Positions 56,421 through 57,009 of a stretch of 64,000 bases of DNA are shown here, piece by piece (position 1 is the stretch's first letter; every line of letters begins with the position of its first letter). Origin of the DNA: Escherichia phage Ecwhy_1; sequence record MH791411.1; one strand, 5' to 3'. Under the pieces are notes generated by a model. The model ran no database searches, was not told the origin of the DNA, and worked only from the letters and a program-made list of their open reading frames with translations. A program made the translations under genes and the position numbers.

Positions 56421-56639
56421 TTATTTGGAATTATACAAGCAATACAAGTATACCATAGGAGCAAAATGTTCGGTATCAACTAAGTATATTAACTGGGTGT
56501 CATATATACCGTACAAATCTCGAAATTTATCTCTGTACAGCAACAATGACTTATTGTTGTGTGGGTCAACCCAGTACTTTAAGTCATTGTAGTGCAACGT
56601 GTTATTACGGTAACCTGATAATATTTGTTTTTTAGCCAA
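56421..56639 (-). CDS. Hypothetical protein
   Basis: 72-aa ORF; overlaps the upstream gene by 8 nt. Confidence 0.45.
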   Translation of the reverse strand: MAKKQILSGYRNNTLHYNDLKYWVDPHNNKSLLLYRDKFRDLYGIYDTQLIYLVDTEHFAPMVYLYCLYNSK

Positions 56640-57009
56640 CTTTTTTACAATTACTTAGTAAATGCATGATGGCATCAGCGGTAAATGGTCCCAGTACTAA
56701 AACTTCTTCTCCATTACCGAAGATACTCAATGGTACAGATTGTTGTCCTGCTAGATATTCGATTTGTTCTAATTCGAAAATGTCATCAGCAGCATAAACA
56801 ACCTGTTCCATTTCATTATCTTTAATCCATGACTGCCAATGTTCTTTAAACTGCTTCGCTTCGTATTCCAGTACATAGTTAGGTGATTCTGGATTGTACT
56901 GATGTAGCATTGTCATACCAGCCATAACCAGTTCTTTTGGTGATGGAGTAGAATCTTTCAGTACTACGATAGCTTGGATAGTTTTAACTTTAACGTTTTG
57001 AGCAGCCAT
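56632..57009 (-). CDS. Possible PTH2-type peptidyl-tRNA hydrolase (tentative)
   Basis: Pattern KTIQAIVVLKD...ELVMAGMTMLHQ and C-terminal VLVLGPFTADAIMHLLSNCK resemble PTH2 family motifs as recalled; weak. Confidence 0.35.
   Translation of the reverse strand: MAAQNVKVKTIQAIVVLKDSTPSPKELVMAGMTMLHQYNPESPNYVLEYEAKQFKEHWQSWIKDNEMEQVVYAADDIFELEQIEYLAGQQSVPLSIFGNGEEVLVLGPFTADAIMHLLSNCKKVG

Follow-up and report, generated by a model that had tools for sequence, protein, structure and literature searches.

The 125-aa minus-strand gene at 56632..57009 of Escherichia phage Ecwhy_1 (MH791411.1) encodes a genuine though very remote homologue of the archaeal/eukaryotic PTH2-type peptidyl-tRNA hydrolases, a member of the PTH2 fold superfamily. 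Judged from its residues and charge, the product is unlikely to work as a peptidyl-tRNA hydrolase. On balance we favour its being an acidic, catalytically degenerate PTH2-fold paralogue that would act through binding and not through peptidyl-tRNA hydrolysis. A non-catalytic or neofunctionalised PTH2-fold protein is the best reading of the evidence given below.

A constrained gene of a small jumbo-phage family

The original prediction placed a 125-aa ORF at 56632-57009. The ORF listing, the ribosome-binding site, a protein family match and the substitution pattern all bear this out. In the window, by which we mean the whole 64,000-nt stretch that was analysed, the gene and its initiation signal are as follows.

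56632..57009, minus strand: PTH2-fold protein gene, 125 aa, an ORF from ATG to stop; orthologue of RaK2 ORF037, CBB_200 and 121Q gp546; PHROG 14786
57016..57020, minus strand: Shine-Dalgarno sequence AGAGG, 6 nt 5' of the ATG of the PTH2-like gene, read from the sequence

The gene starts 12 bases past the stop of the preceding gene on the same strand, within a compact minus-strand array. The window is 99.8% identical to Escherichia phage Turkey3 across 3.2 kb, and 84-97% identical to the 121Q/PBECO4/G17 group (coliphages of about 350 kb, genus Asteriusvirus). The window derives from an E. coli jumbo phage of this type. Comparison of the PTH2-like protein with its 121Q orthologue gave a dS of 0.79 and a dN of 0.033. 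The resulting dN/dS of 0.04 indicates that the protein is functional and strongly constrained. The ORF is thus a real gene, beyond a chance ORF.

PHROG 14786, a Rak2-like jumbo-phage family without an assigned function, was matched over its full length (E 6e-55; query residues 8-124 against profile positions 1-120 of 120). A tblastn search with the PTH2-like protein found 70 phage records, ranging from 100% down to about 30% identity. At the lower end of this range were jumbo phages of Klebsiella, Salmonella, Erwinia, Yersinia, Pectobacterium, Cronobacter, Serratia and Xanthomonas. An HMMER profile of close relatives, searched exhaustively against 1.84 billion representative proteins, gave only 23 matches. 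Three long ones (P0015, P0027 and P0032) were dropped as family members, being Big_9 or SH3 repeat proteins that had accumulated spurious matches. The family is therefore tiny, with about 20 clusters of single-domain proteins of 112-134 aa, and is confined to Rak2-like jumbo myophages (RaK2 ORF037, CBB_200, 121Q gp546). The residue, charge and Pfam counts given below were taken from a family alignment of 27 members.

PTH2 ancestry and fold

The weak PTH2-like pattern that had been noted in the sequence is real, but it can be detected by profile and structure methods only. The query alone had no PTH2 match in Pfam, NCBIfam or the PDB sequences (phmmer). A RaK2-type homologue that is 64% identical to it (P0010) scored 30.2 bits against PF01981 (E 5.6e-7; gathering cut-off 23), and PF01981 was matched by 10 of the 27 family members at E <0.01, the best at 2.2e-8. 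A profile search of the PDB built from 10 close relatives was suggestive only, with 2zv3 at E 0.32. We then aligned the family with a reference PTH2 alignment made up of two phage PTH2s and five with solved structures. These five were collected by searching the PDB with the M. jannaschii sequence as seed, a seed that 2zv3 matched residue for residue. In this hhalign comparison the two alignments matched with 97.2% probability (E 3.2e-11) over 106 columns.

An AlphaFold2 model made from the 27-sequence alignment was of moderate confidence (mean pLDDT 76, pTM 0.65; pLDDT about 69 at residues 21-50). The predicted model is a compact alpha/beta protein with a central mixed sheet between helices, and it can be superimposed on solved PTH2s. 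With this model Foldseek ranked PTH2s in all of the first 14 places for the PDB (1xty, 1wn2, 1rlk, 3erj, 2zv3, 1q7s, 1rzw), at E 1.4e-6 to 2e-2 and a best TM of about 0.7; the next match jumped to E 0.28. In the viral structure library BFVD, the best matches beyond the family itself were viral PTH2s, that of RaK2 among them. Profile and structure searches thus supplied the PTH2 match by which the original prediction was to be checked. Its assignment to the PTH2-type peptidyl-tRNA hydrolases holds for ancestry and fold (hhalign, Foldseek) but probably not for a working hydrolase, since the conserved residues are lost and the protein is acidic.

Compared with the solved canonical PTH2s (1XTY of S. 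solfataricus, 1WN2/2D3K of P. horikoshii, 2ZV3 of M. jannaschii and 1Q7S, human PTRH2/Bit1; Pfam PF01981), the query is about 15-21% identical and has a 10-residue insertion past helix 1. It lacks the GKGK loop, Q22, H25, D86 (Asn in the query) and the 8-residue KTQLEPGT hairpin. It is also acidic (pI 4.7), whereas canonical PTH2 is typically basic. Atu0240/DUF2000 (PDB 2GAX) is a further protein with a PTH2-like fold; the sequence signals of the query favour PTH2 proper over DUF2000, and the DUF2000 Pfam models matched no family member at E <0.01.

The canonical PTH2 of jumbo phages is a different gene

PTH2 is already well known in jumbo phages (PMC7824862). In RaK2 the putative Pth2 is ORF188 (PMC3622015), whereas ORF037, a 'hypothetical protein' encoded about 146-150 kb from ORF188, is the homologue of the PTH2-like gene. 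Likewise, Pth2 of CBB is CBB_392 (PMC5259590), and the homologue of the PTH2-like gene is CBB_200. The canonical jumbo-phage PTH2s (RaK2 ORF188, CBB_392 and Escherichia phage A4 gp114) belong to the same lineage and superfamily as the query but lie at a different locus.

A tblastn search with the canonical A4 PTH2 found it in 44 phage records; this RaK2 ORF188/A4 gp114 type is carried by Rak2-, GAP32- and CBB-like phages. At least 17 of these jumbo-phage genomes also carry the PTH2-like family, among them RaK2, K64-1, PHA46, 7t3, fENko-Kae01, CBB, GAP32, fHe-Yen9-03/04, BF, the SNUABM phages, XbC2, XaC1 and EJP2. The coexistence of both genes indicates that they are paralogues, presumably with different roles. 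The only Escherichia phages found to carry the canonical gene were A4 and EJP2. In roughly 30 records of the 121Q/PBECO4/Turkey3 type tblastn detected no canonical PTH2 at E <1e-3, which indicates loss in that clade. The 121Q/PBECO4 clade retains just the divergent PTH2-like paralogue.

Replacement of the conserved PTH2 site

K18, D86 and T90 of S. solfataricus Pth2 were reportedly implicated through mutagenesis by Fromant et al. in Biochemistry in 2005. According to a recent paper the active site of PTRH2 remains unconfirmed (PMC13088554), and we therefore defined the site from conservation. It was set empirically as the residues invariant in the five solved and two phage PTH2s, in S. solfataricus numbering. 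These include R9, D11, G17, K18, A21, Q22, H25, W49, G53, K56, K60, D86, G88 and P104. The canonical phage PTH2 copies keep the invariant residues, K18, Q22, H25, D86 and G88 among them. The hhalign correspondences between PTH2 and the query were as follows.

R9: L17 in the query; family column mostly L
K18: P24 in the query; family column P/E/S/D/V
Q22: E26 in the query
H25: M29 in the query
D86: N99 in the query; family column (27 members) N9/E3/T3/D2/G2 and others
G88: G100 in the query
KTQLEPGT (89-96, with Thr90): a gap in the query; the 8 residues are deleted in most members too
56713..56715, minus strand: Asn99 codon, aligned to Asp86 of S. solfataricus Pth2 by hhalign, by the family columns and by the PDB profile alignment

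The family column at PTH2 D11 is mostly Gly. The query therefore has neither D86 nor the T-Q hairpin (89-96), and Q22/H25 and R9/D11 of functional PTH2 are likewise missing. The PDB profile alignment, which is independent, set SIFGNG of the query opposite SIIRDA, and an HMM of the canonical set gave the same replacements in four distant members (P0030, P0031, P0020 and P0021). In another, ungapped register it is K25, a Lys in 13 of the 27 members, that lines up with K18. An Asp or Glu stands one residue off the D86 column in about half of the distant members.

Only W61, G107 and P108 are invariant across the 27 members, and these are fold residues common to PTH2. P93 (96%) and E50 (93%) are near-invariant, and Q12 is kept in 85%. 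Archaeal PTH2 has nothing that corresponds to the conserved family segment Q37-Y38-x-P40...G47..E50..F54. Each of the 27 members is acidic, with a net charge of -5 to -13 and a pI of 4.25-5.09 (query -8, pI 4.7), against a net charge of -1 to +6 and a median pI of 8.8 in the canonical set. On the NCBIfam Pth2 equivalog models, family members scored 16-25 bits against cut-offs of 126 (NF003314) and 82 (TIGR00283), and the query itself matched neither model. The canonical A4 PTH2 scored 63-65 bits on the NCBIfam Pth2 models. The loss of the conserved active-site residues, together with the strongly acidic character, makes it improbable that the protein still works as a peptidyl-tRNA hydrolase.

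Gene neighbourhood and transcription unit

The PTH2-like gene lies between genes of metabolic type and a T4 gp13-like neck protein gene. The features around it, in the direction of transcription of the array, are listed here.

62362-62694, minus strand: HPF/RaiA-like gene (PF02482, E 7e-11)
59169-60284, minus strand: CCA-adding enzyme gene, followed on the same strand by NUDIX, glutaredoxin and two small ORFs, then the macro-domain gene
57847..57870, minus strand: terminator-like hairpin 5' of the macro gene, next to the ORF at 57881-58138
57350..57829, minus strand: Macro-domain gene (Tk.4-like, Appr-1-p processing; PHROG 335, E 1e-44; 121Q annotation)
57022..57339, minus strand: PHROG 527 protein gene, 105 aa, no assigned function, directly 5' of the PTH2-like gene
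56421..56639, minus strand: 72-aa ORF with a TTG start, between the PTH2-like and neck genes, specific to the 121Q clade
55579..56385, minus strand: T4 gp13-like neck protein gene (PHROG 211, E 2e-42; 121Q label 'neck (T4-gp13-like)')
55544..55574, minus strand: terminator-like hairpin just past the neck gene
54576-55202: dNMP kinase gene, 3' of the neck gene and followed by the tail sheath gene

The hairpin at 57847-57870 has a perfect 10-bp stem (AAGGACTCTG..CAGAGTCCTT) with a terminator score on both strands, and it probably marks a transcription-unit boundary. Between the macro gene and the neck gene, the interval from the PTH2-like gene to the neck gene included, no terminator-like hairpin was found. 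The macro-domain gene is probably the first gene of the transcription unit that contains the PTH2-like gene. A search of the whole window on both strands for the T4 late-promoter core TATAAATA found 0 occurrences against 7.0 +/- 2.8 expected from shuffles. Either this phage group uses late promoters unlike the T4 ones or it avoids the motif.

In the 121Q clade the gap between the PTH2-like and neck genes is 246 bp, against about 45 bp in RaK2 and CBB. The 72-aa ORF fills it, with an 8-nt overlap at the stop of the PTH2-like gene. This ORF is annotated in 121Q (gp547) and left unannotated in Turkey3 and fEgEco12. It matched no family, and its dN/dS of 0.18 against 121Q indicates that it is probably a real clade-specific gene.

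The position of the neck gene is conserved. It comes directly after the PTH2-like gene, on the same strand, in the window, in 121Q, RaK2 and CBB, and in five metagenomic loci (L006, L008, L009, L012 and L013) whose proteins are 19-30% identical. The upstream neighbours vary, and in L009 glutathionylspermidine-synthase-like and NAPRTase genes take their place. The suggestion that the gene belongs to a block for translation maintenance accordingly has some basis in the CCA-adding enzyme and HPF/RaiA-like genes, but it is weakened by this upstream variation. No tRNA genes were found within the 64-kb window.

In CBB the structural module begins at the neck gene and spans CBB_201-261, and CBB_201 was detected among the 55 virion proteins identified by mass spectrometry whereas CBB_200 was not (PMC5259590). 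The RaK2 paper makes no mention of ORF037, not even where it treats the structural proteins (PMC3622015). We rejected a role as a virion component, as the CBB homologue is missing from the virion proteome and RaK2 ORF037 is not among the described structural proteins.

Several further observations concern the neighbouring genes. The macro gene stands in one array with NUDIX, glutaredoxin and the CCA-adding enzyme, which suggests a cluster for ADP-ribose or RNA-end metabolism; the macro-domain protein itself matched Pfam Macro at E 0.003, under the cut-off. The HPF/RaiA-like gene (62362-62694), of the ribosome hibernation factor type, adjoins a LysM-lysozyme gene (62720-63673), and the same pair occurs in L006. 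Between glutaredoxin and the macro gene of this block, GAP32/CBB-type relatives carry a YqeY gene (GatB-like, PF09424), at 3587-4021 in L006 and at 2028-2441 in L010 (CBB_195). In the window no YqeY counterpart was detectable by Pfam between these two genes.

Possible roles of the protein

We regard it as unlikely that the protein still works, through a remodelled active site, as a hydrolase of peptidyl-tRNA (or N-blocked aminoacyl-tRNA), recycling tRNA during infection or undoing the effect of tRNA-acylating toxins. The homology and fold are those of PTH2, purifying selection is strong (dN/dS 0.04), genes for a CCA-adding enzyme and an HPF/RaiA-like protein lie within 6 kb, and K25 might stand in for K18. 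The Turkey3 orthologue bears the label peptidyl-tRNA hydrolase and that of fEgEco12 the label aminoacyl-tRNA hydrolase, although the latter label came from similarity (BLASTP, HHpred) and not from an assay. Furthermore, this is the sole PTH2-superfamily gene in 121Q-type phages, and the lack of any other PTH2-type gene in that clade makes a residual hydrolase role possible there. Against such an activity, R9, D11, K18, Q22, H25, K56, K60 and D86 are not conserved in the family, unlike in the canonical phage copies, and the DAGxTQ hairpin is deleted. The protein has a net charge of -8, yet it would need to bind tRNA, and the canonical PTH2 that stands alongside it in at least 17 genomes points to a different role. 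A neofunctionalised enzyme, in which the PTH2 scaffold carries a new centre of Q12, Y38 and E50 and hydrolyses some other ester or small-molecule conjugate, would account for the conservation of E50 (93%) and Q12 (85%) and for the Q37-Y38-x-P40...G47..E50..F54 segment that archaeal PTH2 does not have. The dN/dS of 0.04 is compatible with it, and the neighbours include small-molecule or nucleotide hydrolases (NUDIX, macro domain). These upstream neighbours vary across the family, however, and a single conserved acidic residue is a thin basis for a catalytic site, with no His, Ser, Cys or Lys conserved family-wide beside E50. We consider a new enzyme of this kind more doubtful than a remodelled hydrolase.

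A specific version of the binding idea is that the protein is an assembly factor or chaperone of the gp13-like neck protein, an acidic non-virion helper of head completion that would be made together with gp13. The gp13-like gene stays next to the PTH2-like gene even where the upstream genes (L009) or those further downstream (L012) differ. No terminator-like hairpin separates the two genes and one lies past the neck gene, and CBB_200 is absent from virions. All these genomes belong to one phage lineage with a conserved core order, though, and the adjacency may be merely inherited. The gene also lies at the margin of the structural module (CBB_201-261), with early-type metabolic genes as upstream partners, and phages of the 121Q clade have 246 bp and an additional ORF between it and the neck gene. 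To our knowledge, no PTH2-fold chaperone has been described. We place this role below a remodelled hydrolase and above a new enzyme in likelihood, and we do not expect it to be correct. Equally, we do not lean towards the composite proposal that Rak2-like jumbo phages have repurposed a conserved acidic pseudo-PTH2, kept beside or instead of the real PTH2, as a protein-binding effector. Such an effector could target, as an inhibitor or decoy, some host factor by which the tRNA acceptor end or stalled ribosomes are recognised, or else be the neck gp13 assembly helper. This is the least probable of the proposals considered here; if true, it would make the protein the first described phage pseudoenzyme derived from a translation-rescue enzyme.

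For the degenerate, binding PTH2-fold paralogue that we favour, the family would presumably have been born from a duplication of the phage's canonical PTH2. Remodelling after the duplication would have replaced the GKGK..AQ..HA loop-helix motif, shortened the DAGxTQ hairpin by 8 residues and turned the surface acidic. The alpha/beta PTH2 fold has been kept and the conserved active-site constellation lost, most likely with peptidyl-tRNA hydrolysis gone as a result. What remains may be a small, acidic protein, absent from the virion, whose function is to bind a partner and not to catalyse a reaction. That partner might be a factor in translation or tRNA handling, or the gp13-like neck protein encoded next door. 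Human PTRH2/Bit1, a moonlighting binding protein (reviewed in PMC7661711), provides a precedent for a PTH2 fold in protein-protein interactions apart from hydrolysis. It differs from the phage family in that human PTRH2 retains the catalytic motifs and hydrolase activity, whereas the phage proteins have lost the motifs.

Database annotation and implications

The Turkey3 record labels the orthologue 'peptidyl-tRNA hydrolase' and the fEgEco12 record 'aminoacyl-tRNA hydrolase'. The fEgEco12 genome was annotated via BLASTP and HHpred (PMC13070987), which makes its label a similarity-based transfer. The hydrolase labels in these two GenBank records are fold-level transfers, for which we found no supporting assay. 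Several other product names in the Turkey3 record look like transfers that are too specific: 'phosphomevalonate kinase' for the dNMP kinase (54576-55202), 'm7GpppN-mRNA hydrolase' for the NUDIX protein and 'thioredoxin glutathione reductase' for the 82-aa glutaredoxin.

That jumbo phages can carry PTH2 was already known, as was, through the two database records, the PTH2 similarity of this gene. What appears to have gone undescribed so far is that the gene belongs to a subfamily of its own, degenerate and acidic, which is a paralogue of the real phage PTH2 and stays linked to the neck gene. Recognising this subfamily corrects an annotation that is spreading, as the true canonical PTH2 is another gene, one missing from the 121Q/PBECO4 clade. 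Inventories of translation genes in jumbo phages will therefore over-count if the PTH2-like family is included. The impact, practical as well as conceptual, will stay modest until either an activity or a partner is demonstrated, and the fixed place next to the neck gene offers a concrete candidate partner. If the protein is a pseudoenzyme, it would provide a tractable case of jumbo phages duplicating and repurposing translation-rescue proteins.
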